Below, piece by piece: positions 7,340 through 60,575 of a DNA stretch of 64,000 nt. The stretch spans positions 29,397,411 through 29,461,410 of the forward strand of contig CP154954.1 in NCBI GenBank assembly GCA_039621445.1, given 5' to 3'. The DNA is from Euglena gracilis. Its lineage: Eukaryota. The notes below the pieces were generated by a model. That model had not been told where the DNA came from and searched no databases. It saw only the letters and a list, made by a program, of their open reading frames with translations. A program made the translations under genes and the position numbers. Position 1 is the stretch's first letter, and each line of letters begins with the position of its first letter.

Positions 7340-7505
<166 letters not shown>

Positions 7506-7757: not shown

Positions 7758-10700
7758 TCACGCCTCGGCCGCCATGTCCTCCTCCTCCGGCCCGTCCTCC
7801 TCGCTGTCCTCCATGTCCCACAGCAACACCGTTCCCGGCTGGGCGGTCGCCACACGGACGACAGCCCCCTACCCGCTGTCCATGTGGCCTCAACTGTTTG
7901 AATTGGCCAACACTTGATCGACGCAGGGGGGCTTTTTGAAACTAGGGGGAGGGGTCCCCACCCACCCACCGAGGGGTGTCCCCCACCCCCGGGGGAGAGG
8001 TGGGGTCTGGGGTACCCACATTTTGAGGGTCAGTTTTGGGTAAAAAAAAGCGCCGAAAAAAAGGAAAGACTGGCCAAATCCCCACCTTTCCAGGGAACCA
8101 CAAGGCCCTTAGGGTACCCCAGGGGGGTCTGACAGACCCACCCACCCTACACCCTCGACCCCTGGGTGTCCAACCTTTAAAAAAAAAACCCTGGGGGGAT
8201 TGGTAACATAAGGCTTGGGGGAAATTGGGGGGAATTGCGATTGCAGAAAAAAAACCCGCAGGAAAAATCATACACATTTCTGCTGGAGGGATTGCTGGAG
8301 GGAGAAAACTCGCCTTGAATTTCTTTCATTTTGCAATGTTGGAGGATATGTTGAGCCGCCATTCACACCTTTCCAAGCTGATTCCAGAATATAAAAAATT
8401 GTTGTCCAAAAAAAGGAACAGAATTCTGCCAAAATGTTGGGTCTCAGAAGAAAATCTGGGCAAATGCCAAAAATTTTCTAAGTCGAAATAATTTCCAGCA
8501 GCACTCTCAACCCCCCCCCGCATTTATACATTTTAATACATTTCCTGGGGAAAAAAATCCAGTCCATCCAAACCCCTGGTGGGACCTTGGTGGGGGGGGG
8601 GGGGCGTTCCAGCCTGAAACAACGAAAGAAGCCCGATGGCAGCGGCGGGGAGGGGGCTGCGCAGGCGGTGCCCCGCTTCCCAGAGCAGCACAGCAGCGGG
8701 GCGTGCTGGGGGGTGAGGGGCCGGGGCAGGGCGGTGGGGGGCCCGAGCCCTGCGGCGTGGGTCTCCGCCACCCCCGCGTGGCACCAGGGGTTGATGGGAC
8801 GGGAGGTGGGCTGGTCAAGGCGGTATGTGGGGAGGGGGGTGCCCCTGCGCACATGTGCGCGCACACACACACTGGCCAGAACGAAGAATTTTCGACACCC
8901 CGAACAAGCCAAAGAGCTTTCAAAGTTTGAAAGGAAAAATCTTATTCAAGAGGGAAAAAATAAGAAAAGTTGACCTTTGGGGGTCCCCAAGTAGGTGGCG
9001 GACACCCCACCAAAAATCCGGACACACATCGAACTCTGCAAGGAGCGCCTGGTGGATGCTTGCTGCGTCGAAGGGCTCGGTCGGCCCCCCTCCTGCCCTG
9101 GGGGTAAGCATGGGGGGGGGGCACATAAGAGTTGTCCCAACCCAACCGACAGCCACCCGCATTCCAGGTCTGGCCCAGAGTCATTGAGGAGGCTGGGCAG
9201 GCTGGCAGGAGGAGGAGGCTCTCGAGCCTCCTCGAACGTGCTCGAATGACATTCGAGAGGCTCTCAAGTCTCCTCAAATGTCGTTCCAGGTAGTTTGAAG
9301 AAGTTCGAGAGCCTCCTCAAACATGTGTTCGACCTTGAGACTGCAAAAAAATACATATTTCAACTAATTTCATCTCCCTTTGCCAATGCCCTTTGTAAGC
9401 AAATGTTTGGAGGGCCCTAAAATAACAGAATCCCTTGTGTTGCATATGCCCTGTGTGTGTGCAACTTCCTTTTGTTGTGGATGCCTTTTGCATGCAAGTG
9501 TTCGAGTGGCCCCAAAATGACAAAATCCCTTGTGTTGCATACCCTCTGTAACTCCCCTTTGTTGTCAATGCCCTTTTCGTGCAACGTTTTGCAGAGGGCC
9601 CCAAAACAGCTGCGTGTGTGCGCGTCGGAGGAGGCACTTCTAGAGCCTCCTCGAAGGTGGTCGAACGACATTTGACAAGGCTCGGGAGCCTCCTCGAACG
9701 TTGTTGGAACTGGTTCGAGGAGGCTGCCCAAGCCCCCTGGAGTGGGGCTGAAAAAAATTCGAGTCTCCTCCTATGATACCCCCCCCCGAGGAGGCAGGCC
9801 AGGCAGGAACGACAGCTGCTCCAGGTCCAGGAGGGCAACGGGGGCAAATGCCTGCCTGTTGTGCTCTGCATGTGCCGACGGTGCGAGGGGAGGAGTGGAG
9901 TCACCCAGTGGCATTTGCTGGAGCAAACCCCAAATATACTTTCAACACTTTGCAGTGCCCAATGGCTTTGATGCCCAAATAGCTTTGCAGGTGAAGGTTG
10001 AAAAACAGAAAAGAGTCCCGGGACAGCATAGACCCCAAATCAGGGCAGGGAGTATGGGTACGGGCTTGCAGCACAATGATGCCCAACATGAAGGGCTGGC
10101 TGTACAGAAGTCCTGGTTGGGGGGCTCGGCCCCCTACCCACCACAGCACCGCTGAAGGAATCTTCCTTCGGCGCCAAAGGCGCTGAAGGAAGATTCTGAC
10201 CACCTACGCCCCCAGAAATACGGAAGGTTTGATGGGGGGATGGTCGACCCCCCCCCCCGCCCACCACCCGTAGGGTTTCGGGATTTCCCATGCGGCGTTG
10301 CCAACACGATGTCGCTTTGCCACCGGCCAGGCCGGCAATGCCGGCGATGCTGCACCGCCGAACCATCCTCAGGGGGTTGAGCGGCCAGCGGTTGTCTTGC
10401 CCCCCCCCCCCCCCCCGCTGCCGCACTGGACCCCCGAAGGCAGGCACTGGGCCGAATGTCTCCGGCACGGCCGACCGGTTCCGGCTGACACCGCCAGGGC
10501 CTCCAACAAAGAGCCCCAGGCATTGCCTTGCCCCCCCCCCCCCCGTGCACGACACGCCAATGTTCCTAAATCCCGTACGCCCTCCTTTTATCGCCTCTGT
10601 ACCACCACTTTCCTCAACACCATCGGCTGCGTTCCGGGGCTGCCCCTTCCCAGAGGGGCGCAGGGTGTGGTTGCGGGGGCGTCGGCGGTGCCTCGCGACG

Positions 10701-13700
10701 GCCCTGGGCGAGGCACAGCAGGTGGACCGCCTCCCCCACCGGCGCGAGGCGGCCCCAGGGCGGTGCGGGTCGGCCCAGCGCGGCGACCCCCCCCCCACCC
10801 GCCGCAGCACTTCGCCAAAAAGGCCTTCGGCGTCCCGGAAACCGAAATGCGGCGGGGGTGGGGGGTCGGACTCCCACCCACCCACCAGGACGGGGTGGGG
10901 GGGGGGGGGTGGGGTCCGGCCACCCCCCCTCAACCTGCAGGGTTTCGGGGGTTTCCGGACCGCCCTGGGCAGCACGCCAGCAGCTCATCGCCCCACTCAT
11001 GGAAGGGGCTGCCCTGGCCGGGGCTGGCCTCAGGGGGAGGTGGGCGGTCCCCTGGACGGTGCTGGTCCGGGGCGGGGGGGGGGGGGCTGCCACCCATTCC
11101 CCTCAGTCCTCGGCGGCCCACTGGGCTTTGCGCAGAAGGACGTAATGCATTCTTCGGCACACTTCAGCCCAAACCACAAATTGTGGAGGCGAATCCGGCC
11201 CGTTTTGAACGGCGAAGGATTCTGCCGGAAGTGGTGACAAAATTGGGCGGCCCGAACAACTCACCAGGGTGACCAACCTTGGAACAGACCGCCATTTAGT
11301 GTGTTTCACAACGCATCTGTGATCCATTAATTTTTTGGCGACACATCTGTGATACATTAAATTTTTTTGGTGATACATATGCGATACATTAAATTTTAGG
11401 CTGTGATACATGTGATACGGGAAAAATTTTTTGGTGATACACACTAAACGGCGGTCTGCCTTGGAAGCGCAGGCGGGTGGCAAACAGCTGCCCGGAGGTT
11501 TTTGCTGAGCAGAAGCACACCCCTTCTTTTAGCAGCTCCTGTCACCACTGGAGCCCCAAAGAGGGCTGGGCAAGATGAGGTGCATGGACGGCCCCTGTCA
11601 AGCCAACAGGTGCCGCTCTCCAAGGCTGGCGTTGGTCCCGACAGCGGCTCCCTCAGCACCACCGGCAGCCCACCGATGCCAAACCACACACCGCACCAGT
11701 CCATGACCCAATGACGAGCAAACTGTCCACAAACCATTCTGCACCGAAAACACAAAAGGGAAAACCCCCAAAAGAAACACATCCGCGTCAACCGCCGGGA
11801 AATCGGAAACTGCAAAACACACGGCATCCGCCGAAACCGCCACAGGGGAGCACTCCAGGCCTCGGCGGGGCCAGCACGTTGCGCCGCGTCTGCGGGGCCA
11901 CGAGGCCTACGGCGAAGTGCGCAAGGCCGGCAGCGCCCGAGGCGGGGACGTGGGTGGCGACGGCCTGGGGGTTGAAGCGCAGGGTCCTGCGCGGCATCCA
12001 CCGTGGCCATTCCGCCAACAAACCAAACACGGGCCGCCTCACCGCGGCCGGCAGGGCTCCGGCCGCACAGGAGGGCGGCGGGGGCGATGCGGTCGAGGCC
12101 CACCGCGGCGGCCGGGGGCGGGGGCGGGGGGTCGCCGAACGCGGCCCCGAGCAGCCGCTCCAGCCGCTGGTGCACCGCCTGCATGGACCGCGCATCGTCC
12201 GGGGGGCCCCCCTCCAGGAACGGCAGCCGCGGCCACGCGGCCAGGCCGCTCAGCGAAGTCATTGCGGCGCCTGGCGGCCGGCACACACCACACCCACACC
12301 CGCGCACACCACCCACACACATGACACCCACCCCTGCACCACATACACAACACCACACACCCACACACGGTGCACGCACACCATCCATGCAGTTAGTGCG
12401 CCACGGCGCAAAAAAAATCATGCAGTGGTCGCAATGAAAAGAAGCTTTTTTTGCCACACACCATTGTTATTATGTGCATCATCATGATAATTAAAAATAA
12501 TTATTAATGATAATCATTAATTATTATTAAGCGGCAACGGTTATTGCCGGGGTGGACGCAGCACAAAGAAAAAAATTAGCCTCGGTGGTCGTGGCGCAGG
12601 CAATTTTGTTTTGCTGCGGTGCACGAGGTGCAGATTTTATCGGCATCGCAGAACCCCAAAAACTTTTTCGCTGCAATGAAAAAAAACAGAATTGGCTCAA
12701 TACCCTTCCATGGTCGAGAAAATATCAAAGAGGCCGGACAGAGAAGCCTGAAGAAGGTACCTGCAGCACAGAAAAAAACATTGAAAAAAAAATTGCTGGG
12801 GCAGTAATCAAAAGTTGCCGCAGCGGTCGGGGGCACAGAAATTTTTTGCAGCAGCTCTGTTAGTCACAACAATATTTTCCACCGTCGTTGCGGACCGCTT
12901 TTGTGCCACCCAACGTTTTGCTCTGGCAATTTCTTTGTGGGAACTGGCAAACCCCTGTGGTTTGCAGTGCACTAGCCGCTGGGCGTGTGGTATGGTGTGG
13001 TGTGGTCATGGGTGGGTGGGGGTGTGGGTGGATGGAGGTGGGTGTGCACACGTGTGTGCACCGGAATTCTCATGTGGGAGGGAGGGGAGGTGGTTCCCTT
13101 CGGCAGTGGATAGGCCGGGTGCAGGTCAGGGAGGGGAAGGGCGTCCAGTGGGGAGGAAAGGCCTGGGCAGCACCCCAGACTGCAGGAGGCGAGTGATGCG
13201 GCAGGCCACCCACCGCCGTTGGGAGAGCTACCCTGGGGGGAGCAAAGATAATTTTGGTTCCGAAACAGTTGGGGAAAAAAATGGGAGAAATTTTCAAATG
13301 TCCCAGACAGCCAGAAGAAAACATTTTTCCGGACCAAAAATTTTAATGGTTTCCTGAAAAACACGAAAACGCATCGGGCACCTCCACAAAAACCAGTATA
13401 CGACCCAATCTCTTACCCCCCCCCTATGTCCAATGACCGGTAACCTCTGTCCTCTGACCGGGGGGGTGGTCGTTGGACATAGGGTAGTGACCAAAAAGGT
13501 GTCCTCTGACCGGGGGGGTGGTCGTTGGACATGGGGTCAAAAGAAAGTTGGTGGGTACCCGGGTCCCTACCCACCCAAAAATGCCCAAATTTTCCCTTCC
13601 GGCGCTTTGCGCCGAAAATTTTGGGCAATTTTGACAAATTTTTGTCCAAAAAAGTGTCAAAAATGGCACTTTGGCCAAATTTTTGGCCAATTTTGGGGCA

Positions 13701-16700
13701 AAATTTTTCGTCCCGGCGCTTCACGCCGGGACGAAAAATTTGGTCAAACCTCCGAAAAGGTGTCCTCTGACCGGGGGGGGGGGGTGGTCATTGGACATAG
13801 GGGGGGGGGTCGTTGGACATAGGGGGGGGGGGGGTAAATTGATCCGAAAAAAATTGGTGTTTTCTCCAAAGTACTCTCGGGAACATTTGGGCGGGTTTTG
13901 CCCGTCCAAATTTGTCCAAACAAAATTTTTCTATGCCTCCCCTGGCATATCAAATACGGAGCGCGGGGGGGGGCTCCAGTGGCTGGCTGGGCGCGGCACA
14001 CGTCCACGCTGCGCTGCTCCTCCGCGGTCCACGGCGACCGCGCCCGCCCGACCACGGCCAGCACCCGCTCCGCCCGCGCCTGCTGCTTGTTCAGCCAGTG
14101 GAGCAGCTCCAGCATGCCGGCCTTCGCCTCCCCAGGGCTGCCGGGGCTCTGGGGAGAGGGGCGGGGGGCAGTGAGGTGGGGGGGGGCACGGTGGCACGGT
14201 GGCGGGTGTAGCGAGGGAAGGCCGGACACGTGTCCCCCGGTGCTCACCGGCCATATGCCACTACGCGGTGCCTCCCTCGGGGCCGACCAGCAGACAGGAA
14301 CCTACAACCCCCTAGCAGGGGTATCTGGTGGGAAAAATTTCCCACTGCCCGCTGCAAAGCGCCAGAAAAAATTTGACCACCCAAAACGTGCTAAAAATGC
14401 TCATTTTTGGCAATTTTTGGAACAAAATCAGCCAAAAAAAGCACATTAATACCCAATTTCCACCTCGGTGCACACTGCCGTAGGATTTTTTCCCCCAGTT
14501 GGACCCTGGGACCCTTCTGGGGGGGATGGAGAGTCCAGTGTCAGTGTCCTTTTTCTGTGGCTGGCAAAATGGCCAGCTAGTGGACCCCCAGGTCCTTGGA
14601 CAAAAGCATGGACACCTATTAGTGAAAAATCTAGTCACCTCTGCGGCCATCTGGGCCGCATAGGCACAGTGGTGTTTAGGGTTCTGCCCTCCTACTTGCT
14701 TTGCGTTTTGAGGTGGGCCTTTGCATCCAGAGGTCTTTTTAAGGTTGATGATTCCAAGGACAGCAGGCTGGGACCCAGCCCAGCGCCCCCCCCCCCAAGA
14801 GAAGTTGGGGTCGGGCTCAATGGGAACCCCTCCACTGTTTTGGACAAAAGTTTCAACATCGAGATTTCCCCCGAAGAGGAGGATGGTTCGGTGCCCCCTA
14901 GGGGTGGTACAAATGTGGGGGAGTCTCAGTGCGTAACCGGAAGAGATCCAAAAATACCCCCAATTTTTGCACCAGGGGGTAAAACAATGTATTCTGGGGC
15001 AATGATTTGATGGTCTTTTCCGAAACACCATAAATTGGCATGCCCACCACACCTGTTTTTTTCGGCACACCGTGTGATTTTTGGCCCAATTTTATCTCGT
15101 GCTGCTTCATCATTTTTCCCTCTAGGGTTATAAGTCACGATTAGCACAGGGCCAGGCAGAACGGAGATCAGTCAATAGGCTGTGGGTGCGCTGGAGGTAC
15201 AGTTTTGAAGCAGCACTCCGGTTGGCAGGGGTCCAAGGTGAAAGCAGAGCCAGAAAGAGCATCGGTGACCAAGACACCTTTTCCATTTTTTTGCGTGTTT
15301 GTTTGTGTGTGTGCTTGTGAGTGTGTTGTGCATGTGCGTGTGGGTGTGTTTTGTGTATCTGTGTGCCTGCATGTGTTGTGTGTGTTTGTGTGTGCATGTA
15401 TCTGTGTGTGGCGCATGTGTTTGGTGTTGCATGTGTGAGCTTGTGTGTGTGTGTGTGTGTGCGTGTGTGCGTGCGTGTGTGGGAGTTCCTCAAACAGGAG
15501 GGCTGTCCAGCCTCCTCCATCAGTTCTTGCAGTGGCTCCGAATGCAGTCCGAAGCTGCCGTACACTGCCGGGTCAGGGCCTGGGCAACGTCTTAGCTGGG
15601 AAGCAATGCATTCCCAGAAGAGCAAATGTTTCACACCACTACAGGAGGTTTTCCAAAACAACAACGTCAACAACAACACTTGATTAACCCAATCCATCAA
15701 CCCCGGGCTGGGCCGTGTGTCTGCCCCGCCCCCGGCTGAAATAAAGTTGAGGCCAACTCAGACTAAGTTGGTTGAGCTGAATGCTGAAAAATGTTGTTTG
15801 TGAGAGGGGTATGGGGGCTATATTATATGCCTGAAAAATCCCAACCCAGTTGGATTCAGACTTCTTCGTCACATTTCGGGTAACAGCTGGGTCCAGCCCG
15901 GCAAGCCACTTTTGAGAGGGGCTGAAATGGAACCCTCAATACCCGCTTCATGGAACTGACCCCTCCCTCCCAGGCAAATAATTGTGCGTAAAATTAGCCG
16001 GATTAAGAACAGAATAAATTAGCCCCTTGTCAATTTGGGGGGGGGACAAATTGAGCAGCGCAAAGGTGGTGAGATGCACATTTTGAACATTCTTACGTCC
16101 AATTTCACACAAAATCCTAGGGATGACCCATGTGTAGAATCCATGCAAACTACCCAAAAATTGTTGTTTGTGGTGCTTCTCGGCATTCCTGTTCCGAGTC
16201 GATTTGCATCGAAGGGAAGGTCACAAACAGGCACGCACAAAGGGGGTGACAAATGCCTGGCGGGATAAACCAGTTTGTCATTAAAAAATGGAATGGCGCA
16301 AGTAACGGCGCAGTGCGACGAACCTGTGCAATTCTCAAAAGAAGGGGAATTCCCCGGCCAATGCTCGCGTCAATCGGATCCAAGCCACACCCAGGGCACA
16401 GAACACGGCACTCAGCAGCTCCTCCACCGTGAGGATGACGTGGGCCAACCCGGGCTGCAGAACCTCCACCACCCGCCGCACCAGCTTGTGGATCGGCCGG
16501 AGGCGGCTGCGCGTCCGCTGCCACCCCCCCCCACCATGTCGGGCCTTGGGAGGGCCCAGGGTTGCAGCGGCCCTCGCACACCCGTCGGGCGACGCGCGCA
16601 ATGTGATGGCCGACCCCGATTCCCCACCGTTGGGTCCTATCCCCGCGAGCTCGCAGCTCGCCGCTCGGCGGGAGGCGGTGGTCCAACAGAAGTGCACCTC

Positions 16701-19700
16701 AACGTCGATTGGGCGGCTCACCTGCGTCATCAAAAAAATGTCCAAAAAACACGAGACCTCCCGTATTGACTGCACAGGAGGATGAGCCTGGTGAGATGGA
16801 AGTGGAAGAAATAGAAGTGTGAGAACCCCACCACCATTTGCAGCTGCATTCGCTGGCAATGGCTGTGCCGATATTCATGCTGGTGCCACCTGCTGTGTTG
16901 TGACAAGGGGGGGGGGGGACGCAACATGGACCATTGAGAAACGCGACACAAAAACCGATCTCAAAAATTGTGCAATCAATTTGCTGGAAAGAAATAAGGG
17001 CAAAGACAAACTTCCCTGATACCACACTTTTTGTCTTGACAAAAAGTGTGGTTTCAGGGAAAAAACTGGGCCAAACTATGGGAATTTTTCGAGTCGAAAA
17101 AATCTACCATTTTTTTCCAAATAAAATAGGAAAACACAAATACAACAATATGCGCCCCCATAACAGCCGTGGTGCCTGCTGTGCCATACAGCAGCGGTAC
17201 CTGCCAGCCAGTATGAACAGAAATGCATTGGCACCGCAGAAAATATTATCCCAGCAGGAGTGTCCCCTGCACAGCCGCCTCGCCTGGCTGTGGAGGGCTG
17301 CCTCTACCTGGGCGTCACTTGGCAACCCCCCAGGGGGGGTTGGGATTCAGCCCAGAGGCTAAAAAATCTGGGCTGGCTGGAAAAAAGCTGCTGGCTGACC
17401 CCCCCTCCCACAGGAATCCCCCGGCTGGTCTGACTGGGGTCGACTGAAGGTTCCAAAAAAAATCGAAACTGCAAAAAAAAACGACAAAAAGGCTGATTTT
17501 GCAAAAACAACCAATTTTAGACGCAGAATTTGCCCTGGAAAGCCCAAATCTGATTGATATTTGCCCATTTTTTGGCCCATCTTTGCACCTCCAAAGCCAA
17601 AAAAAATCCGTTGCTGTCCGGCCGTCGCCTGGGCCGCTGGAAAACAACCTCATCGATGGGATGGGGGAAGGGGGACCGGGGCTGGAAAAAGGCTGCTTGC
17701 TCGCTGGACCCTCCCCCCCAGGGGGGATGACCTCCGCTTAAGCGACGCCCTGGCCTCCACCTTCTGGCAGTGTTTTGCCGTGAAGTTGCAGTCCAGGAAC
17801 GTGTGCAGCGTCTTGCCCATGGTCCCCGTCACATGCCGGCAGCCGGCCGCCGAATGGGGCAGACCAGCCACATTTCCCCTGGTGGGGCATTGTCTGCCTG
17901 CGGGTGTGCATCCCCGCTGCGCCGAGGGTGCGGAGGGTTCGAAAATCGCCGTTTTCAAGTCAATGAAGCAGTAGCGGCCTGTTCCACTTTATATGCGACG
18001 CTTTCCTACCCGCTGCACTGTGCATTCTACCTCTGCATTTATGCTTCATACACAGCTACCATTGGTCCGCGCCGATGCATCCCTGTCTTCCATTGTACAT
18101 AGACCACCTGAGTGTGGTTTTCTGTTGTTGTAATTCTCTACTTTTTTTCATGTTTTGTTCATTAGCTCAGTTCCGGTAGGGCTGAGCCTTTGTCCAGTTT
18201 GCTTGCTCAGTCACCATTGGTCTGAGCCCCTTCTCATCTGCCTTACAGCACTGTATGATTACTCCATTTTCTGTTGATGTGAGCGCCCTCCGTGGGAGTA
18301 TGTGAGCAATAATTTCTGTTTCACTTTTTTCCCTTACTTTTTATCTTTCTGATAAAGTACCTCTCCTGCTCAGTTCTAGAACCCCTGAGCATAATAATCC
18401 ACTTACGCGGAGCCTGTACATGCCCAGGCACCAAACCAAACCAAACCAAACCACCCGCCCACCCTCTGGGGTGGGGCCCCCTGGGGGAGGGGATCCTGGG
18501 GGACCCACCCACTTTTGCCCGAAAATGGCCAAAATGCTAAAAATAGCACCCTTTTCAAAAAAGATATACCCTTTTCCGAAAAAGATATACCTGCCAGCCC
18601 CTACCCCCACCCCGTGGAGGAGGGAGTCCAAGGGGCCCACCCACCCCCCCCCCCCGGGGGGAAGGGGTCCAAGGCTAAAAAAAAAACACCTGAAAAAACA
18701 CCCTGGGGGGGGTCTGCAAAACCTTAAAGAGATGTCTGGCTCGGGATCGGTGTCATCCTCTGACACAGTTCTGCTGACGCTTCGCCGGCCCTCTGCTCGG
18801 AGGTACAGCAGCGCCGCGGCGGGGTCGACGGCCAGCCCCGCCGCCGCCAGGTCGTCCACCAGGAACTGGAACTTCTTCGTCGGGGGCACCTCCCTGGGCC
18901 ACAGCACAGAGAGTGGATTTTCAAGGACATGGGTGGTCGGGCCCAACCTGTTGTGGGGGGGGGGGGGGCTCGGGTTTCTTTCAGGGTTAAAACACAAAAA
19001 ACAGAGGTGCACATCTAGGAGTAATCTAGTGCGACCCACCCGGAGCCTGCTGGTCCCATAAAAAGAAAGGTCTGCGGCACACAATCGCCGTGCTCACAAA
19101 CCTCACAGATGGAGTTTCTCGCGGAGGTGTGATGCCGACAACCTTGCTGGGGTCCGCTCCCCCAAAATGCCGAACAAAGCTCAAATCGTGCGCATCAAGA
19201 AGAATAAAAATATGGAATTGCCGGTGATCTGACTGTCTGAGATGCACGATGGACAACTGCTCAACTGCTCAACTGCACAACGGGGGTGGCCAGGAGGGCC
19301 GTCGTATCTGCCCACGTGGACTGCAACCACCGCCCGGCACCTTCCACAGCAGGATGGCATCGGCGGAGGTCCTTGCAAAGCCCCGTTCGTAATGGGGAGA
19401 AAAATGCAGCAATGCTCCAGCAATATTTCCATTGCATAGGATTTGAACGTTTGGGTAACATTTACAATTGATGTTTGCAGCATTTGCACGACAAAGGCAA
19501 GATGAGGTTTGATGTAATTAGAATAAAAGGTGACACAGAAAGAAACTGATTAATTTGAAAATTTGAAAAAAAATTCAAATGATTTAACTTAACTTGTCAC
19601 TGAAGGCCACCCTGTCCCACGATGCCCAGCATCTCCCGCAGGTAGGCGCAGTGCGCCGCCACCGTGGCGACGGCCACCGGGTGCCGGTGCAGCGCTGCGA

Positions 19701-25700: not shown

Positions 25701-28632
25701 ACAGATATAGACAGAGAGAAAGAGAATATAGAAGAGAGGGAGAGGGATGAGTAGAGGAGAGGAGGAGATAGAGGGAGAGAGAAGAGAGAGAGATGGGCGA
25801 CAGGGAGAGAGAGGGACAGAGGGAGAGGGAGGGAGAAGAGGGGAGAGGGAGAGGAGGGGGAGAGGAGAGGAGAGAGAAGAGAGAGAATAGAAGAGAAGAG
25901 AAGAAAAAGAGAAGAGAGAGATAAGGAGAGAAGAGGAGAGAAGATAGAAGAGAGAGAGAGAAAGAGAAGAAGAGAGAGAGAAAAGAGAGAACAGACAGAG
26001 AAGAGAGAGAGGAACAAGAGGAAGAGAGAGAGAGAGAGGGGAGAGACAGGATTAGGAGAGAGTGCGGATAAGAGGGATATAGAGATACATATAGGGAGAG
26101 AGATATGAAGAGGGGAGATAGAGAAATATAATATAGAGAAAGATAGAGATGAAATATATTAGAAGAGATAGAAAGAGAGGACAACAGAGATATATAGATA
26201 TAGAGATAGAGAGATATTATATAGAGATAGATATATACATGGATACAGACTATATATATAATATCGATATATAATATACATATTAATATATAAAGTATAT
26301 GTGTATAGACATATATATATATATATATACATTTGTATGTATATATGTATAAATCTGTATACATATATACATGTATATAATGTATATATATGTATATAAG
26401 TGTATATATATTATATATAATATATATAAATATAATATATATAAAATATAATAAAAATATATAAAATATAAATATATAAATATATATATATATTCTGTAT
26501 ACATGTATAATAGAATGTTTGAGTATGACAGGGGATGATGGGACACGAAGCAAATGTTGTCACTAAAACAAATGCTGTCTCTTGAGTAATATGCTCTCAT
26601 ATATACCCTCACACTCTCAAATTCACTCTCAAATATGTTCATGTGGGGGGCACTGTTGAGCCAAGCAACACTTGCCGGACAACCTGCAGCAAGTGCCGCC
26701 CTTTCAGGTGCTTGAACGGGGAGAGGTGGTCGCCCTCCCCGGCGACCGGCGGCAGGAAGGTGTCGATGGCGTGAAGCAGCCCGTGCTCGCTGTCGAGGGA
26801 GAGGGTCGGCCGTATGGGGACTGGGTTGTGAGGTGTTTGCCATCTGCAGGGATCTGTGAACAGAGCCTGGCCACCCTCATAACGGAACATCTTCGAGGTT
26901 TCTGAGTTCTCCGGGAGCTGGCAGGCAAAATGGGAGTCAAAACTTCATTCGTGCATTCCGCTGCTGAACCACCTCTGTATCATTTCAATGATGCCACAAG
27001 AGACCAGGATGCTCTCCGACAGCAAAAATAAAGAAATTAATAAGTTGTACTTGCAGAATGGTTTCCAATAACGCTGGCCCACTTGGACGTTTGGTGTAAC
27101 CATGCCAAAAACTTTGCCCTCACTTGCAAAAGTTTGGAAACTGTCACACTTGTGACTGTTCCCAAGATGTGTATGCATGCACATGCACACGCACACACAT
27201 ATACACACATGCACACACACACACACACGCACGCACGCACGCATGCACACATGCACGCACGCATGCACACACACATGCACACACACACACGCGCTCACAC
27301 ACACACACACACGACACTGGCTGAGGTGGCCACACAATGTCGCGAAGGCAAGGGAGGCAATGTATCATGAACAAACTTGAGTTGTGAAAAATAAATAATT
27401 GAAGAAGGACCCAGGGAGTTATTGACGACGCCTGACATGAAATTAGATGCAATTCTCTCCTAACACCAACACACAGCACATACAGAAATATTGGAGCCGA
27501 CCCTTTGCAGACCAGGCCTTCGGCAGACGCCGGCTCACCCAACACATGTGAGTCACAGCAGTGGTGTGCTGGTGCACCATCCGGGCCGAGGACACGGCCT
27601 CCGCGGTGGCCGAGGCGCTGAACCGCACCACGCACTTCCCGTCCTCCACCCGGTGGTCGCAGGGCCTCCCCGCCTCCAGCCCCCCCCACGCACAAAAAAA
27701 AAGTAACGGGAAAGGCAGATGAATAAAATGAAGAACACAAATAGAATGCGCCACTGTAGGACATGAAAGACAGATAGTTTGCGTGTGACCTGGCACAGCG
27801 TTCAACGGCCCGGGGCCTGGGCAGAGGTGCACCTCGCCGTTGGCCAGTCCCGCCGCCAGAAGCTTGCCGGTGGGGCTCCACAGCAGCGCCGTCACCTCCG
27901 CCGGGGTCGTCAGCTGGAACAGCCGCTGGAACGACAGCGCGTTGTGCAGGACGGTCCACGGCCGGTCACGCCGCGATGAGACGTGACCCAAAATGACTCC
28001 GATCCACTCACTCCGTCTTGGGGGGGGGGTCAGATCAACACACGTTGCACCTTGCACTCAATTGCCTCCTGAAAATGTGGTGGATGGATCGCAATGCAAC
28101 GCAGCGTTCTCAAGCTACAATATCGCTTTCAGTGGAGCGGCTGGCTAAGACTTACCTGGGGGGGTGGCCAGCATACAATTGCTTACCGACCCCCGGGGGG
28201 GGGGGAGGGGGGTCACTCCACTTTTTTTTAAAAACCAGTCAGTCACTCATTTTCAAAAAACCAGCCAGTCACTACCCCCCCCCCTGGGGGAGGTCGGCCA
28301 CTCAGAAAAACGGCCACTTTCCAGTCACTTTAGGCCATTTTAGGCCCAAAAAAATTTTCGGCGCCGGGGTCACTCAAGCCACTTTTGCCCACTCCTGGCC
28401 GACCCCCCGGGGGGGGGGGGGGGAGGGGTCCGGGCCAAAAACCAGTCAGTCACTCTGAAAAAACCAGTCACCCCCCCGGGGGGGGGGGGGGTTGGTCAGT
28501 GCTTAAGCAATTGTCTGGTGGCCAGCCGGGGGCGATGCTGCTCCGCGCCGCCACGGCGACCAGGTCCATCTCATGGCACAGTGTGACGAGGGAGATCGGG
28601 CCCGGCACGGCCTTGCTGTGGAGCAGCCGCAT
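7758..28632 (-). CDS. APC4: Anaphase-promoting complex subunit 4 (N-terminal WD40, helical domain, C-terminal WD40), roughly 20 or more short exons
   Basis: Exons 28532-28632 and 27823-27953 splice to [77 protein letters not shown], colinear with the ANAPC4 N-terminus as remembered (DLIALANTAGEVLLHRLASFHRVW...LAWRPDGKLLA). Mid exons read [17 protein letters not shown] and [19 protein letters not shown]. The last junction and exon (7758-7855) read [24 protein letters not shown]...AEA*. Several internal junctions are unresolved. Confidence 0.88.
7856..8662 (-). other. Nonconventional (euglenid-type) intron, last APC4 intron
   Basis: t|gcg CAGCCCCCT ... AGGGGGCTG tcgtcc|gt gives a 9-bp terminal stem with N3/N6 spacing. 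Joins in frame as RGTACVAT. Confidence 0.8.
10756..10967. mobile_element. MITE coinciding with an APC4 nonconventional intron (10751-10970)
   Basis: Minus-strand TIR CAGGGCGGTCCGG / CCGCACCGCCCTG. TSD gtgctgcc / gggccgcc (6/8). Removal gives [17 protein letters not shown] in frame. Confidence 0.8.
16488..17289 (-). other. Nonconventional intron following a 13-nt micro-exon (17290-17302)
   Basis: cac|agc CAG gcGAGGCGGCTG ... CAGCCGCCTC cggCCG atccac|aag. Yields VEAALHKLVRR, gap-free against remembered APC4. Confidence 0.65.
17308..17752. mobile_element. MITE coinciding with an APC4 intron
   Basis: Minus-strand TIR CAGGGCGTCGCTT / AAGTGACGCCCAG. TSD gtggaggc / gtagaggc (+ strand 17753-17760 and 17300-17307). 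Internal sequence resembles ~55165-55875. Confidence 0.88.
17835..18798 (-). other. Nonconventional intron of APC4
   Basis: ctc c|gag CAG ... ggCTG ccggc|at gtg. Joins LYLHVTG in frame, with no GT/AG at the ends. Confidence 0.75.
18170..18453 (+). mobile_element. 3' end of a 5'-truncated relative of the non-LTR element
   Basis: TCCGGTAGGGCTGAGC (18172) matches the 56-bp 3' UTR repeat of the full element. The end CGCGGAGCCTGTACATGCCCAGGCA(CCAAA)4 resembles 51781-51824. 5' boundary uncertain and may extend to ~17860. Confidence 0.75.
21805..22480. repeat. 18-bp minisatellite (TGCATCTTGTCCAGCATC)n
   Basis: Over 30 degenerate units. (AGCATCGCCC)n 10-mers lie nearby at ~21419-21447 and ~22856-22946. 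Confidence 0.92.
23025..23267. mobile_element. MITE, TIR CAGGGGTTTTTT, 8-bp TSD
   Basis: TTCCTGAT is duplicated at 23017-23024 and 23268-23275. Confidence 0.9.
23700..26520. repeat. Purine-rich AG / TA low-complexity tract
   Basis: Almost C-free scrambled (GA)n/(TA)n. Probably a long microsatellite with base-calling noise. Confidence 0.85.
27655..27822 (-). other. Nonconventional intron 2 of APC4
   Basis: ctc t|gcc CAGgcc ... ggccCTG cgacc|ac cgg. Joins VHLYRVEDGK. Confidence 0.8.
27954..28531 (-). other. Nonconventional intron 1 of APC4 (CGG/CCG variant)
   Basis: atc gc|ccc CGGctggccac ... gtgaccggCCG tggac|c gtc. About 10 of 11 positions pair. Joins SSIAVLHN. Confidence 0.78.
28172..28517. 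mobile_element. MITE, TIR CATACAATTGCTTA/TAAGCAATTGTCTG, 8-bp TSD, internal CCAGTCAGTCACT repeats
   Basis: GTGGCCAG is duplicated at 28164-28171 and 28518-28525. The element is intronic. Confidence 0.92.
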
Positions 28633-29684: not shown

Positions 29685-30499
29685 GGGGGGGGGGCAATGT
29701 GACTGAATGGTTTTGGAAAAAATGGAAAATGAGCAGGTAAGCAAAGGTGTGGCTGGGACAAACGGCCACCCAGTTCCAAAGGCTCCGGGACATTGCTGCA
29801 CCCACGGAAGAAAGCATGGCTTTCCGTTTCTTTTTTTATTGCTCAAGCGGTCGATGGTGGGGTGGGGGGTCAAAATGGTTGGGAAGAGGAAAGCAAATGC
29901 GGGGAAAACGCCCTGCTCCACTGCCGAGAATTCTCTTCCAACTGTGCTCCGTTATTCTGTCGCTGTCAAGTCCAACCCGGCACAAGTCGCAGTCGGCAGG
30001 TATCCATTTCGACGTGTAATTGTTGTTGACTTTAAAATGCACTCATATTATAACCTTTTGAATTATGAAAAACTATCATCATTTTCCCTCCAATGTTGGA
30101 TTTCCCCTTTTTTTTCACATCATTTTCACCGTAATTTTGTCTCCCGCAGTTTTGTTCGCGCTGTAGACAAAATTTGGAGGGACTGCTTGGTATGGTTTGG
30201 GCTGGTGCACAAGGTTAAATAACAATGCGTCAAAACAGGGTCACCAAAGAGGTCACAGTAATGAAATGAAAAGAAAGGCAATGGAAGGTAATGATGTGCT
30301 GTACAATCATGCCTCCTCTGCGACTTCATGGGGTTTTTTTACAATGCAGATGAAAGAGAGAGAGAGAGAGAGAGTGTGTGTGTGTGTGTGTGTTTGTGTG
30401 TGTGAATGTGTGCATCGCAAGAAGGCTTTGACTTGCCGAGCAAAATGTACAATGAGCACCTGATGGGCTATGGTACACAACAGCGAGGGGTTGCAGCGA

Positions 30500-33400
30500 T
30501 CAAACACAGCGGACGCAGACACGGTTGGTGTTGGTGAGGGCAAGGCGGGGGCAACACTTGTCGCAGGCCACGCAGCCGCACACCCGGCAGTGGTGGCGGC
30601 GCCGGACAAATGTGAACTGCGAACAGCGAACGAAAGGAAGTTGCGAAGGGGGGCAGGGAGGTTTGCAGGCAGCCGGAAAAGGCCCAACAGAATCCCCGAC
30701 CACTTTCTTCACAAATGCAAATTCTGGGGAATGTCGTACAATGTTCTGCAGTACAAAATTCCAATCACACCTGGTCAACCACAGATTTGCGCAATTGACA
30801 GATTGAACAATGCAAGAAGCGAAAGAATGTCCCACAGATGCGTCAGCGACAATGCTGCCTAATGAATTCTCATCTCAACACCCACGGAGGGATTAAAACA
30901 CCTGTTGAACCGCAACTGCGGGCACAGCTGCAGGGGGGGGGGACCTCCTTGCGGCAGACACTGCAGTGGGTGCTGTCGGGCTCCCACTGCTCCCTCCGGA
31001 TCCACACTTTTGGCGCATCACCGTCAGGGGTCCGCTCTTGCACCTTGGCACGGAGAGGGGATGCGAAGGGTGACTGACACAACACCCACCATGGAAGCTG
31101 GAGACCTAAACACAGACTTAAGTCAAAATTCGACCCAAGGGATTCTTGGTGTTTTCCAACAAATGTTTAGATACATGCATTAAAACAAAAACATGTATGC
31201 ACATGTGTTCACTGAATTGAAAACAAGGACACTGGCGATAAGAAAATTCCCAAAGCGTTGGATTTTTTTTTCGGGAAAAAGGTCTGTGGGAGGTGTTTGG
31301 AGGAAAACAGGTACGGGGTGGTATCTTTGGATGTGACCCAAAATTTCACCCAACCCACGTAATGGACATTTTGGAGTGGGCTTATCGCAAATAACCGCAG
31401 GGATATTTCGAAATTAATGCGGCCGGTGTGCCATGTACGGAGCATAGCCTTGCAAAAACGACAGGGAGCAGATGCATGCAAACGGCAGATCGACTTGTTG
31501 AAAAAACATTGGAGACCAGGAATAGTTCCAACCCAAATTGTGGTGGATTGAAAATCCCCGTACAGGATATTTTACCCAAATGGCAATGTGTTCGAAATTT
31601 GAATTTCGTTGATGTTGATTATTGCCAGTTTTCTGATTGGGGGACCAAAAACACCCATATTTGGGGGAGTGAGAATCTCCTAAGTTTGAAGGATAAAAAA
31701 TTTTAATGGAAAAACCTGCCCAAATATGGCGTTGAAGGAGAGGGGCAGGTGGACGCACATGGAGCAATTGGGTGGGAGGCATATGCACATCAAAAATGGA
31801 GAAAGCCTCAAAAATTGATTGAATATCTGCTTTCGGCCCTTGATGTTAAGGAGGAGAAGTTTTCCTTCGAAAGGGAGGATTATGCCATGAGAAACTTGAC
31901 TGAGGAGAATTTTCAAAAGAGAGCCGAAACGGATTGCTTTGCCCCCTTCAAAAATTATCAATGTGCTTTTTTTTAGAAAAAAGAAGAAGCCTTGAGCATT
32001 GATTGCGGGGGCATGGTGTGGTTGAACCCCCTTTGCCTTTGTGGCATAGGGTGGCAAAAAAGTTGCAAAGAACCCCGTGTGATGCAATATGCATTGTTCC
32101 CGATTGGCAAAGGGAATGGGTGAGAGAAATTGTGTGAAACACAACACACAAGTTGTATTTACAGGCTGGTACACCGCCTTTCGAAGTGGACTGGAAACCC
32201 ATGAGAGGTGTGACGTGGGGAGTTTGGGTCTTGTTGATAGAAGGTAACAAGCCTCCCACCAGCACTAACGCGCCTGAGGAACCAAAGGTTTCACGTTTGA
32301 AGTCACGCATGGTGAAGAAAAGGCACTCGCGCACAGGATCAGCAAGTTTTCTAAGGATCGGCAACTTTTGCTTCGCACAAAAGTGATTTTGGTCAACGGG
32401 GAGGAACGGGATATGTATATTTTGGTGGATGCAGGGGCGGAAGCAAACCCCATAAGGCAAGGATTCATAAGCGATCACCTTATGCACACGGCTGAACATC
32501 CCCTTAAGTTTGAAATGGCTGACGGCCAATTTTAAGTGGGGGTACAAAATGCACTAAGGTGAGAATGAAGTGGCTGGGTGAGGAGAGTAATGGGGCACCA
32601 CCCGAGTGCGTTGAGTATGAAATATTCGTATTTTACGAAGCAAATGAAAAGGTGCATGCCACTTTGTCGTTCCCATGGCTTGCCCGAGCAAAGCTTGGAA
32701 TTTTCCCACATCACCGAGCTTTGGTTTTAGAGAACCCTGAAGAGAGGGAGAAAGACTGGAAGACCTTTGACTGCATCAACCTTTCATAGTCGGCCTTGAA
32801 AGTCATCACCTGAGATATTGTGCGAGATGGAACTGTAAAAAAAATATTGGAAAATATTGAATAAGAATGATATGTGATTCAGCCTCCTCCAGCAGAAGTG
32901 TACACATTCCCAAAACTGCAATTTCCGCAATTTTCCCGATTTTTTCCCGCAATTATTACAAATGCCTCCGATATCCATCCCCTTCCAAGCAATGATATTT
33001 ACAGTCAATTACCACTTATCATGTTGCATTCAATACACTATCAGCAGCAGCACTTCAAAGTATCAATTCTTTTCATTTTGCAACATTTGTGCATGTTTCG
33101 AGCTGTTGTTTACACTTTTCCAACAAAAAAATACAAAAACAGGATTTTTGTACTTTTGGGAACATGCTGATTTTAGAAATTTGGAAATTGTTGGCTGAAA
33201 AATCCGAAAATGACTAAAAATTGACAAAAAGTTTGGCCTCAGGTTAAATCTGGTCCAGAATTTTTATAAACTGAAAAAACAATTCCCATCAGAAATTGGG
33301 GGAAAGCCCTAAAAAAGGCCATAGAATCGCCAAATTTTGTCAAAATTTGTAAAACTTGGCAAATTTTGGCAACAAAGTAACAAAAGGCACCTGGGTTCCT

Positions 33401-35440
33401 TTGTAAAACGTTCAAAGAATGGGCGGAACCCGTTTCGCCTTTCATTTTCAGATTTCAGGTTCGTGCGGGAGGTTTGCGAAGAGGGGAGAAAACTGCGGAA
33501 AATTTCGAAAATTGTGGGGGAAATTGCAGATATCAATTTCCCCCCTCTGCTGATTGAAAATTTTCAATGTTGATTTTTAAATGGATAAAAAATGTTGAGC
33601 TTTGGAAATGTGATGAACACACACTATGATGAATGCACTTCCCCCAGTGGTGAACGTTTGGCTCGCTGTGCCCAGAACGAGACCCGCACGCATAGCGCTC
33701 GGCACACCTCGGGAAACGCGCGGTAGTACTGGAACGGGTCCTCCAGCAGGGGCCGGGCGGCCTCTGCCACCTCCCGCTTGCGCGCCTCCGCCGCCGCGGC
33801 GTCCCCTTTGGCGAGGAAGACGAAGGCGTGGGCCATCGGGCGCTGGACCTGCGGCGGGCAGGGGCACAAAAGAGCCATTGGATGGACGCTGTGTTCCCGC
33901 CGGGCGAGTTGGCCAGCACTGGGGACCCCGGCAGCGGGGCAGGACCTCCCAGGGTCTCGGGCATGACAGTCCCCTGGGTGGCCGGCCACAGTTCCAAGGC
34001 TGCTTCGGCTGCCGAGGAATCAACAGACGGGCTGCACGGCGGGGTGGCAAAAAGGTGAAATAAGACGGTTCTGAGATCTCGGGGGCAGCAAACGGGTGTC
34101 GATGCACAGTTGGGGGCCGGTGGTGTAAAAGATGGAAGTGGGCCGCGCTGTCTGGAACAGTGGAAACTAAAAGAAATTGAAGGCCCCACCAGCAGAAAAC
34201 CCTCGGAAGGGGGAGAAGAGGAAGGGGGCGGACCTTCTCTAGAATCTCCCGCGCCTCCTCCTCGTGGATCATCTCCTTGGCCTCCTTCTCCACGCCCTTC
34301 GCCAAAGCGTCGTACTGCTGGAGGAACTCCTGTGTGACAAGCGGCACAAGAGCAAAGCGCCGTCACATCTCACTCTGGGGGGGTGACGATCACACACGAC
34401 TGCGGAACCGTTGAGGGGATAAGGAGGAGGGAAAGAGGGAAAGGAAGACAAGGAGGAAGGGAAAGGATAAGCGATGGTCCAAGGATGCCAGGAATAACTC
34501 TTTCCCCCAAAATCGACCTGTGCTTTCGGCCAATTTTTCTGTGGACTTTTCACTGAATGTGCCAGGACCAAACGTTGACTAAAGATCCGAAACAACATGC
34601 AATGGGGGGGGGGCAGCCAATAATGCACAACGCAAAGAATTGCAAAGAAAATGCAAAATTCATTCCCTTCAGCCCTCAGGAAGGCTGCTCTGCTGCCACC
34701 AAACGCAGTTGAGAGGTCGTCCACAAAATTTGCAAATTACCATTGTGAACAAAACAAAGAAGCGGCCAGGGGCTAAACTAGAAAGTGGTGGTGACAACGC
34801 GCCCATGCAGGGTGGGAACAGGGGGAGGGCATGCCTGCACTTGGGGGTAGCGGACGTACAGCTCCGCCTTTGGGCCAATGAGGCATTCTGTGGCGATCTT
34901 AAGGCTGGTCCACGCTGCGAGGACCTGCAGAGACACAGAAGCAGCATGGAAAGGGAGGCTGGAGCTGTAAGGGAAGGCCTGGGTGGGGAGGTGGTGGTGA
35001 CCCCCCTTTAGGTAGGGATGGGGCTGTGTCACGCACGAGATTTGGGGCGTGGGCAGGGGGGGGGAGTGGTTGGAGTTTCTGGTATTACCGTTCAGCCAGC
35101 TCGGGGGGGGGGGGGAGGCAACCTCCAAACCCAACTGTGTTCCTACCTGTATGTGCTTCATTTCGGCTTTTCGGATTTTTTGCCATTTTTCTCACATTTG
35201 GCTGGCGAAACGGCTTTTTCGCCGTTTTGCCAAAAAGCAATTTTGAAACAAATTGGCTTCTGATGGGTGGGAAAATGACTGGGCTGGGTCCCTGAGGCCA
35301 GCAACTCAGCAATTGTGGACTTGCATCAGGACTGGGTCTGCCCCAGGCTTTTGCTTAAGGACCCCCGGGGGGGGGGGGGTACTGGCTAGCCAATCGGCTA
35401 GACACTGGAAAAAGTGGACTAGCTAGACCCCCCCTCCCCC

Positions 35441-35475
<35 letters not shown>

Positions 35476-38400
35476 CCGGGGGTCCCCCGGACTGGAAAAA
35501 AAATCGCTGCGCGCCGGAGGAAAAATGAGGTTTTTAACAGGTTTTTGGCTGATTTTGTTCCAAAAATTCCCAAAAATGGCCAAAAACGGGCATTTTTGGC
35601 CATTTTTGGGGGTCCCAAAAAAAATGTTCGGCGCTTTGCGCCGGTCACTGGAAAAAAAATTTCCACTAGCTAGCCCTGCTAGCAGACCCCCCCCCGGGGG
35701 GGGGGTCTGCTAGAAAACCCACTAGCCAAATTTGGACTAGCTGCAGTCCAGCCCCCCCCCCCGGGGGGGTACTGCAATCCCTTAAGCAAAAGCCTGGTCT
35801 GCCCCCCCCAATGTGGCTGGCATTGGGGAACCTCCCCCAAATGCAAACAACCCGTTGCTTGAACTTCACCAGGCAGGCTGAAGGGTGGATGAACTTTGGG
35901 CAAAACAACAAAGAAATGCCTATTGTGATGAAGGAAAGGGGTGGCATTTTTTTTGACGAAAAACGCCTGTCTGCCAGCCCAAAAAAATAAGCAATGGTCG
36001 TCAAGTTGGTTGGGTGATTTTGTTGCTGATTGCTTTGGATTGGAGTGGAGATTTTCCTTCGCTTTCCCTAAATTTTAGCTTCATTTCCAGAGGTCTCTTA
36101 ATTTTGGACTTCGCGGTGGTGTCGGGGGGGGGGGTTCAATTTGGGTGTCGGTCGGTTCGGCCCCACAGGTTGCTGAAAATTGGGGGTTACTCACAGCGGG
36201 AGGAGAGGATGGCCGCTGGAGGGCGGGGGGGGGGGGGGGGGCACGGCCCCACCTGCTGGCCCTGCCGGCGACCCCGGGCCCGCTCCAAGTCGCGAAGCAC
36301 CCGGTGACAGCGGGCGAGGGCGTCCTGCATCTCGCGGTACCGGATGGCCGCCTCCGCCTGGGCGGGTACCGCCAGGGCCCCGGCCCGGTTGTCAAGAAGA
36401 AGGCTGACGCTCGCGCGCACATGCACGCGTGCGTACCATTAACCGTGCATTCCAAAACCAACAATATTGGTGTGAAAGGCGGCTCAGTGCTGGCTGTCCC
36501 CCACCCACATGGTTTTCTGGGGGGGGAAAGCGTGCGGCTGCTGAGGCATGTGGCTCACGGCGGGAAACACAATTGAAGCACAGCATTCGGGGGGAGGGTC
36601 AACATTTTGCCTCTCCTCACACTTGGGGCCCATGGTGAAGGTGTCTTGTGCTATGGGGTGCCTGCACATAGCAGGCAGACCCCTTGGTGAAAATACTCAT
36701 TTCGTGGTACCTGGCATGCCGTGAGGGGAGTGCGGCTCCAGCACTGCCCGACCCAACCCCAACCCCAGTGCAAAATCCACCCAAATGGCTTCAGGGGGTT
36801 CATATTCAATAATTTGGGTGAAACCTCGAGTTCCGGCCACTTTTAGAAAAAGAACACCGCTGCCCATTGGAATTTGTTCGTCAAGGCAAACCCACCCCAT
36901 TGAAAATGAAAATTGCCAACAAAAAGTTTTGCCTGCAAGGGAGGAAAAGGGAGGTTGGTTCTGGATTTTGCTGGGGTGGCCGGTCGTGGGGGCTTGTCCC
37001 ACCCCCCCCCCCACTGCCTGTCCACAGCGCCAACCCACCCCTGCGGGGACCGCACCGTGACTGGGGTGCGACCTTCCTTGCAAAGAAGACATGAGCACGT
37101 CCCTGCGCGTGGGAAAACACATGTGTGTGGTGTGGCTTATTGTGTTCCGGGGTTCCCCTCGAAGCCTGACAGACGTGGCCCTGCGCACGATGTCCTCCAG
37201 GGTCCCCACCTCCTGCAGCAGCTGATCCGCCTCCGGGCACTGCCGCCAGCGCATGGCGGCCGGTGGTTGGCCGTCGGGGGGCCCGCCTCCCCCGCCCCGT
37301 CAGCCCGCCCCACCGGAGAGCGGGGGGCCCAGGCGGGGGGGCCGGCAACCCTGCGGCCGGTAGGCAGCGTTGGCCTGGAGGGCGGCCACCCTGCACCACG
37401 CGGGGGGAGGGGAGCAGCGGGCGAGGAGCCAAAAGGTCAGGCGCGGGGACACTGGGGGAGGGGGTCCGATGACCCCCCAGCAGAGCGGCGGGGGCGGCAC
37501 ACCGGTCGGCCAGGAGGGCCCACCCCTTCTGCATGGCGGGCCCGTCCTGCTGCTCCTCGGGCTTCTCCAGCTGGGCGCGCAGCTTGGCCAGGGGATCCCC
37601 GGGGGGCCCCGGACCAACACTGCATTTGACCACCTGCCCCCCCCCCCCCAGGGCAGAACGGGAAGGCCTGGTGGGGGGGGTGGTCGACCCCCCCCCTGGG
37701 ACGAGGGGGGGGGGTCGACCCCTTCCACCCACCACAGCATTTGCACCACCAATTTCGGGGAAACGGGGATATTGGCCAGAAAAATTTTGAAAATTTTTTT
37801 TGAAAAATGAACCCAAAACACATGATTTTTTGATGGAAAACCACATTTTTTCCACAAAAAATCTCAAAAAATTCAGGGTTAAAAATTGGTACTTTTTAGG
37901 AGGGGGGGTGAAAAAAAAGAGGTCAAAAAAAGTGGACAAAATTTTGGACAATCAAATTTTACTGACATTTTTTCTCATTGAAAATTTTTGGACTTTGAAT
38001 GGCATTTTTTGCTTCAAAAACCTCTCAAAATCAACATTTTGAGAAAATGTTGATTTTCTGGAAGGTGTGAAAAAATGGGGTTTTGGCGCCGGAAAATTTT
38101 TTTCGGGTCCAAAAATTGGTGCTCCCGGAAATACGGGAAGAGGTGGTGGGGGGGTCGAACCCCCCCACCCACCATGCAGGGGGTGGGGGGGGGGGGGGTG
38201 GTCGACCCCCCCCCCGACCAGTCTTCGGTTTACCAACCCCGGGGGGGGGGGGGGGTGCCTTGGTGCCTGCCCATACTAGGCAACAAGGCAAACCCCTCGG
38301 GTGGGTGGTGCCCATAGCAGGCACCCCCCGGGGGTCGGTTTTGGGTCGTGGTGCCCGCCACAATTTCCCCTTGAAAAGGGCCATTTTCGGGCCCCCAGGC

Positions 38401-60486: not shown

Positions 60487-60575
<89 letters not shown>

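Follow-up and report, generated by a model that had tools for sequence, protein, structure and literature searches.

Results

We analysed 64,000 nt of nuclear DNA from Euglena gracilis (GCA_039621445.1, CP154954.1:29,397,411-29,461,410; the whole of this stretch is called the window, and all coordinates are relative to it). An earlier note had pointed to six stretches of this DNA as introns that lack GT-AG ends, keep short terminal stems and represent eroded introners. We number these introns 1-6 by coordinate. The minus strand is the only orientation in which all six make sense. On it, introns 5 and 4 lie between the N-terminal exons of an APC4 gene, intron 1 precedes a last coding exon (7761-7853) that ends in a stop codon, and intron 6 precedes the last exon of a coiled-coil-like gene without recognised homologue. 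We consider four or five of the six likely to be genuine nonconventional (NC) introns at the borders given below, intron 2 being the doubtful one: homology supports this reading well for introns 4 and 5, the case is reasonable for introns 1 and 3, ambiguous for intron 6 and weak for intron 2.

Written in the direction of the minus strand, the ends are GCG-CAG...CTG-TCGTCC|G in intron 1 (7856..8662, 807 nt), AGC-CAG...CCG-ATCCAC|A in intron 2 (16488..17289, 802 nt), GAG-CAG...CTG-CCGGC|A in intron 3 (17835..18798, 964 nt), GCC-CAG...CTG-CGACC|A in intron 4 (27655..27822, 168 nt), CCC-CGG...CCG-TGGAC|C in intron 5 (27954..28531, 578 nt) and GCG-CAG...CTG-GCGGT|A in intron 6 (36368..37186, 819 nt). 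The outermost dinucleotides are, in the same order, GC..CC, AG..AC, GA..GC, GC..CC, CC..AC and GC..GT; none of the six is GT-AG or GC-AG and all six fit the loose pattern N3-C(A/G)G...C(T/C)G-N5/6, exactly as the earlier note had described them. The strict, complementary form of the Euglena code is satisfied by five (introns 1 and 3-6; N6 in intron 1, N5 in intron 3, for example), whereas intron 2 falls outside it because the A and the C of its CAG/CCG pair are left unpaired. The downstream exon begins with a purine in 5/6 cases (G, A, A, A, C and A for introns 1-6). Most borders can be slid without changing the product (by +1 in intron 1, +1 or -5 in intron 2, -1 in intron 3, +-1 in intron 5 and -2 in intron 6; intron 4 permits none), and sliding that of intron 5 by +1 turns its exon start into G and its spacing into N2/N6.

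Homology to APC4 bears directly on introns 4 and 5. Using Pfam and PDB searches, we placed the N-terminal APC4 exons on the minus strand at 28632-28532 (from an ATG at 28632), 27953-27823 and 27654-~27540. The exon between the two introns matches the Pfam family ANAPC4_WD40 (PF12894; E = 5.8e-7; 30.1 bits, the cut-off being 22.9), and this match ends at the 5' border of intron 4, while alignments to APC4 chains in the PDB (E = 0.004-0.005) begin with the first residues of exon 2. When both introns were removed in silico, the N-terminus aligned with the WD40 repeats of P0001 at 47.4 bits, ungapped over 72 residues and across both junctions. A GT-AG alternative for intron 4 (27832..27644) needed gaps and reached 36.2 bits; without splicing, the score was 42.0 bits and the alignments stop at the proposed border. 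Thus the removal of these two introns restores an APC4 WD40 repeat. Intron 4, which has no in-frame stop, is very probably real at, or within the permitted slide of, these borders, and intron 5 is predicted with nearly the same confidence. Of the three APC4 junctions said earlier to align without gaps to homologues, two lie in recognisable APC4 sequence (introns 4 and 5), but a third was not identified. The PF12896 region of APC4 went undetected by Pfam on single exons, a search of a protein collection with the APC4 open reading frame (ORF) returned only a generic WD40 protein and the unspliced ORF of the window itself, and metagenome contigs contained no match to a 40-nt probe taken from exon 2.

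In a second approach, we folded the intron ends. The duplexes formed by the terminal 24 nt of introns 1-6 have energies of -35.1, -30.0, -25.7, -18.5, -21.0 and -24.6 kcal/mol, compared with a mean of -13.0 (standard deviation 5.5) among 3000 random pairs that satisfy the same signature; the fractions of this null set at or below the observed energies are 0.0017, 0.0053, 0.023, 0.16, 0.095 and 0.030, intron 4 having a weak end stem. In minimum free energy (MFE) structures of whole introns, positions +4 to +6 pair with their expected partners in introns 1, 3, 5 and 6, that is, in four of the five that conform to the code, with base-pair probabilities of 0.88-1.0 (1.0 in intron 1, 0.99 in intron 3, 0.91-0.92 in intron 5, 0.88-1.0 in intron 6). 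The same pairing was found in only 48 of 253 random code-fitting pairs (19%). It is absent from the MFE structures of intron 2, where it is off by one, and of intron 4. End pairing is stronger than in the null set; intron 1 keeps a 15-nt inverted repeat (93% complementary) and intron 2 one of 13 nt (92%).

Since exons in this DNA have about 95% GC at third codon positions, a model of third-position GC could serve as a coding score. It falls sharply at the 5' borders: upstream exons score 0.3-0.96 per codon and intron interiors -0.29 to -0.75, the upstream side of intron 2 excepted. Each intron joins an open frame, as had been claimed, but in GC-rich DNA this is weak evidence. We then considered, for each intron, the frame-compatible alternatives within +-60 nt of its borders. 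Intron 1 is clearly the best local solution: its duplex ranks first among 19 local candidates, there is no coding-preserving GT-AG alternative, and we regard it as likely to be real at, or within the slide of, its borders. For intron 3 only two candidates preserve the coding sequence, neither of them GT-AG, and the proposed pair is the better one; it is predicted with slightly less assurance than intron 1. Intron 6 has a contiguous 7-bp stem ranking first of 40, and we give its borders a little better than even chances. Intron 2 could also begin 9 nt further downstream, at a 5' end that conforms to the code. The intron 2 borders as given are doubtful, somewhat more probably wrong than right.

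The window contains seven intact MITE-like elements (miniature inverted-repeat transposable elements) from several sequence families, with CAG...CTG termini (a single terminus of one element reads CAT), terminal repeats identical at 13-16 of 16 positions (about 15/20 in family B; also 12/12 at the extreme ends) and target site duplications (TSDs) of 8 bp in 6/7 cases, matching at 7-8 of 8 positions; the seventh is of 7-8 bp. They are located at 647-983, 11285-11458 and 23025-23267 (TSD 8/8 in each), 35344-35796 (terminal inverted repeat, TIR, 16/16; TSD 8/8), 40162-40986 (TSD 7 bp, which becomes 8 bp when the terminal C is included), 52431-53035 (family A, minus strand; TIR 16/16, 8-bp TSD with 7/8 matches) and 28172-28517 (family B; TSD 8/8).

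The family A element at 52431-53035, one of three aligned copies, is placed between two minus-strand coding segments (53035-53124 and 52365-52418). Removal of N3, the element and N5 deletes 8 nt more than the element itself and leaves the frame intact, so that this copy reads as a putative in-frame NC intron. A metagenome scan with the 20-nt TIR of family A hit two loci, which are chance matches because similarity does not extend beyond the 20-mer.

The family B element is nested within intron 5. Its termini are CAT...CTG, and since one of them is CAT rather than CAG, the element by itself lacks the code in the orientation of the transcript. Its 8-bp TSD, GTGGCCAG, occupies 28164-28171 and 28518-28525, and further family B copies are found at 39013-39299, 60891-61215 and 51768-51901. 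The insertion occurred 3 nt from the 5' stem of intron 5 and left one intact copy of the stem at the splice site. The idea that some introns gained nested elements without losing their ends thus holds for intron 5 and may hold for introns 1 and 3, as repeat fragments suggest: these fragments (in intron 3 at 18393-18448 and 18477-18591) share 63-84% identity with dispersed sequences of the window, and a later insertion and the original intron body would look the same. Intron 5 also contains, next to the inner copy of the target duplication (28140-28160, minus strand), a consensus-like conventional 5' splice site, CAG|GTAAGT, without a matching 3' AG at the intron end; it is probably a chance occurrence.

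If the six introns descend from such elements, traces of TIRs and TSDs might be left. Terminal identity amounts to 14, 14 (approximately, allowing a 1-nt indel; 6 without gaps), 12, 8, 10 and 10 of 16 positions in introns 1-6. For TSDs, we compared 8-mers (introns with N5) or 9-mers (introns with N6) in the register expected at the two borders and found 5/9, 6/9, 4/8, 4/8, 2/8 and 3/8 matches, 24/51 in total; in intron 2 both borders share TCCACA. None of 24 shifted registers reached this sum (mean 14.7, maximum 20), and among 2393 decoys with coding flanks the probability of a sum of at least 24 was 0.018, although taken singly only intron 2 nears significance. The statement that these introns have no detectable TSD was therefore too strong, because 24/51 exceeds both the shifted registers and the decoys: a weak TSD-like signal is present. 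Descriptively (n = 6), elements and introns do form a series from intact MITE to bare stem, but introns 1 and 2 are less eroded than had been stated, because they retain both the 13-15-nt inverted repeats and TSD-like repeats.

Further features of the window were annotated by a Pfam scan of all 263 stop-to-stop ORFs with a length of 100 aa or more, supplemented by 56 minus-strand ORFs and exons from 19-28.6 kb and 21 exon segments. Across all of these sets, nothing but ANAPC4_WD40, FYVE and weak chance matches came up that could bear on the host genes of introns 1-3 and 6, and an Rfam search of the window matched no family. A FYVE zinc-finger exon (30503-30874, minus strand; E = 1.3e-5, just below the Pfam cut-off) points to a further minus-strand gene between APC4 and the host gene of intron 6. 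An 18-nt unit repeated in tandem about 34 times (21864-22477) reads as open and coding-like on the minus strand; simple repeats rich in AG, AT and CA follow it over several kilobases (24613-27317), and both the array and these repeats lie within or adjoin the APC4 region. The region from 7.7 to 28.6 kb may conceivably be a single long APC4 gene, an idea prompted by a resemblance of the acidic C-terminus. The peptide HVTGTMGKT had been guessed to be a Mur-ligase/FPGS-like mark, which a PDB search did not support. A (GTT)n microsatellite with roughly 55 units (7340-7505) lies just 3' of the stop codon of the intron 1 host gene, and a second (GTT)n-like array in inverted orientation is found at 60486-60598.

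The right-hand part of the window holds a cyclophilin gene (Pro_isomerase; 54920-58918, minus strand) with Pfam-anchored exons at 57973-57854 (profile positions 19-58), 56294-56172 (94-134) and 55009-54920 (129-158); no exon covering profile positions 59-93 could be located. At 56130-56210 (minus strand), 24 nt that span the end of one of its exons and the adjoining GT 5' splice site (the exon tail plus GTGCATCC...) occur twice, 16 nt apart, resulting in two candidate 5' splice sites. An AT-richer block on the plus strand (45160-50208) contains two long ORFs (976 and 706 aa). The longer one contains an Exo_endo_phos (APE-type endonuclease) domain, which suggests a retrotransposon resembling long interspersed nuclear elements; the shorter one matches no Pfam family.

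Discussion

The six stretches belong to an already known and very common intron class. The main texts of the published work, on which we draw here, give the code of Euglena NC introns as 5'-N3CDG-/-CH'GN5-6|R, report that pairing beyond CAG/CTG is essential for splicing and assign 71.8% of the introns of E. agilis to this class (Nomura et al. 2025, PMC12501133); in E. gracilis the count is 16,151 of 28,337 (PMC11170887). The pairing of the ends, sliding borders with short direct repeats and the late removal of NC introns as circles are likewise established (PMC11282704, PMC3935182, PMC4770533). The introns described here resemble the euglenid NC introns of these studies (Nomura 2025; Milanowski 2014, 2016) in their non-GT-AG ends, in CAG/CGG-CTG/CCG pairing at the same spacing with extension of the pairing, in the usual purine at the exon start, in borders that slide on direct repeats and in their occurrence alongside GT-AG introns of the same gene or region. 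They differ in no essential respect, but the CAG/CCG combination of intron 2 is not among the working variants published in these texts, intron 5 is followed by a pyrimidine, and our assignment is made from sequence only. What we established is that the sequences satisfy the cis-code and fold accordingly.

Several observations weigh against taking all six at face value, and different explanations draw on them. Some of the stretches, mainly introns 6 and 2, could be conventional or 'intermediate' spliceosomal introns with nearby GT-AG borders, the stem being incidental or auxiliary. Frame-compatible GT-AG pairs number 1-16 per intron within +-60 nt, with the most (16) at intron 6, where GTGCGC...CCCGCCCAG|G lies only 2 nt and 16 nt from the proposed ends, and with seven at intron 2 (for example GTAGAG...CCACAAG|C). 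Moreover, NC status cannot be assumed by default, because the three junctions that can be read in the cyclophilin gene are conventional (two complete GT-AG introns, plus an AG at one more 3' end). The intron ends GTGTGG...CAG and GTGCAT...CAG of this gene agree with the GTG-type 5' site, C-rich tract and CAG 3' site that the main text of PMC11170887 describes. However, the alternative at intron 6 would discard 5.5 units of coding score at a place where the NC code is perfect and the ends pair with high probability, that at intron 4 is contradicted by the WD40 homology (it is the sole coding-preserving GT-AG candidate scored there), and introns 1 and 3 have no such alternative. Hybrid introns are also rare, with 0.8% given for E. 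agilis (main text of PMC12501133). We consider the conventional explanation unlikely.

An explanation of about the same low probability accepts the introns as NC but not as derived from transposons: they would have been gained by break repair or converted from conventional introns, and the stems would reflect the needs of splicing only. Break repair, which also leaves short direct repeats, was proposed to account for 8-nt repeats at a recently acquired NC intron (Milanowski et al. 2016, PMC4770533, main text). Since pairing is functionally required (PMC12501133), the survival of the stems is uninformative about origin, and the terminal inverted repeats of the six introns do not discriminate either, because they overlap with the functional stem. 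In addition, the full-length sequence of each of the six occurs only once in the 64-kb window, where only the nested pieces match elsewhere. On the other hand, seven intact MITEs of multiple families in the same window share the CAG...CTG termini and 7-8-bp TSDs, one of them interrupts an exon in frame exactly as the code demands (N3 + N5 = 8), and introns 1 and 2 keep terminal inverted repeats of 13-15 nt.

It is still less likely that several borders are chance matches and that the stretches lie within larger introns or have non-coding flanks. Code-fitting pairs with coding-like flanks are indeed abundant in the window (1427 on the minus and 1019 on the plus strand), and an unbiased scan for the code, a stem of at most -20 kcal/mol, coding-like flanks and non-coding interior ends still returned 73 'strong' candidates on the minus versus 51 on the plus strand, so that the combination of code, stem and flanks is not specific. 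Locally, 15-39 other frame-compatible, code-fitting pairs occur per intron within +-60 nt, and the proposed pair is not the top stem in intron 3 (rank 7/46), intron 4 (11/27) or intron 5 (5/34). A gene parse by dynamic programming with the coding-score model, which allowed NC or GT-AG introns and is too imprecise for judging borders, recovered intron 5 exactly and the 5' end of intron 3, but no other borders. Furthermore, the host genes of introns 1-3 and 6 have no homologue detectable by Pfam, PDB or Atlas queries with single exons. Intron 2 is the most exposed: besides its violation of complementarity, its upstream mini-exon of about 36 nt (near 17290-17325) scores -0.32 per codon (third-position GC 64% by eye count), and the parse skips this mini-exon and merges the intron into a larger one (17783..16535). 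It may be a MITE remnant inside such a larger intron, reaching from about 17783 to about 16488-16535. Against chance as a general explanation stand the end energies, the MFE pairing in four of five introns over a 19% background, the first local rank of introns 1 and 6, the homology at introns 4 and 5, and the TSD-register signal, which was not among the features by which the introns had originally been selected.

On balance, we hold it to be moderately probable that most of the six are ordinary NC introns of minus-strand genes that arose from old insertions of CAG...CTG-ended MITEs. Such insertions would have made target duplications of 8 bp, some perhaps of 9 bp. In the transcript, CAG or CGG at +4 to +6 and the following bases would pair with CTG or CCG located 5-6 nt before the 3' end and thereby bring the exon borders together. 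A non-spliceosomal machinery would cut 3 nt before CAG and 5-6 nt after CTG, and the intron would be released as a circle, as known from published work. Because N3 + N5 amounts to 8 nt, excision would remove the element plus one duplicate. With time, the body and the TSD would decay, while the terminal pairing would persist because splicing needs it.

A MITE origin of NC introns has been a hypothesis since 2014, and in 2025 their origin was still said to 'remain unclear'. The eroded-introner reading is a plausible and reasonable extension of this hypothesis. It gains from the intact look-alike MITEs, the nested insertion and the weak TSD trace, but none of the six is multi-copy in the window. 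Because they have no second copy there outside the nested pieces, we can only infer that they were introners; being single-copy in the window, they are at best former ones. According to the main text of PMC11282704, the introners of Micromonas, dinoflagellates and further eukaryotes are short non-autonomous elements with TIRs and TSDs that become introns in exons, and the family A copy would do likewise. Classical introners differ in being removed by the spliceosome via splice sites that they carry or co-opt from the TSD, whereas here the NC pathway would act.

The intact elements can also be compared with a transposon superfamily. MITEs of the hAT type have 8-bp TSDs and YARNG-type termini. 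The intact elements of the window likewise start with CAG(G) and have 8-bp duplications in 6/7 cases, but introns 1 and 2 fit a 9-nt register, and no transposase came to light, although no search aimed at one was made. A hAT-like assignment of the window MITEs, suggested by the 8-bp TSDs and CAG-type termini, is a lead only.

The spacers of the NC code may themselves be a fossil of transposition. In this view, N3 + N5 = 8 (and N3 + N6 = 9) would equal the TSD length of a superfamily of MITEs with CAG...CTG ends, possibly hAT-like, several families of which are still intact in the window; the six introns would be old survivors that retain the selected terminal helix and a faint TSD trace but nothing else. 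If the spacers correspond to the TSD length, the NC machinery would perform at the RNA level a 'precise excision' of the element together with one duplicate. We put this forward tentatively, as somewhat less than an even proposition. We found neither concrete MITE families acting as NC introns nor an equation of N3 + N5 with the TSD length in the main texts of the literature searched, which included few subscription journals.

Taken alone, the six introns add little, being more cases of the most frequent type of intron in Euglena. Their context could matter more, since the same 64 kb hold intact MITEs of multiple families with matching termini and 8-bp duplications, one of which reads as an in-frame intron, together with older introns that show graded loss of TIRs and TSDs. 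If this proved true genome-wide, the hypothesis of a MITE-like origin would become a testable model that links the 3-nt and 5/6-nt spacers of Euglena NC introns to the target site duplication.

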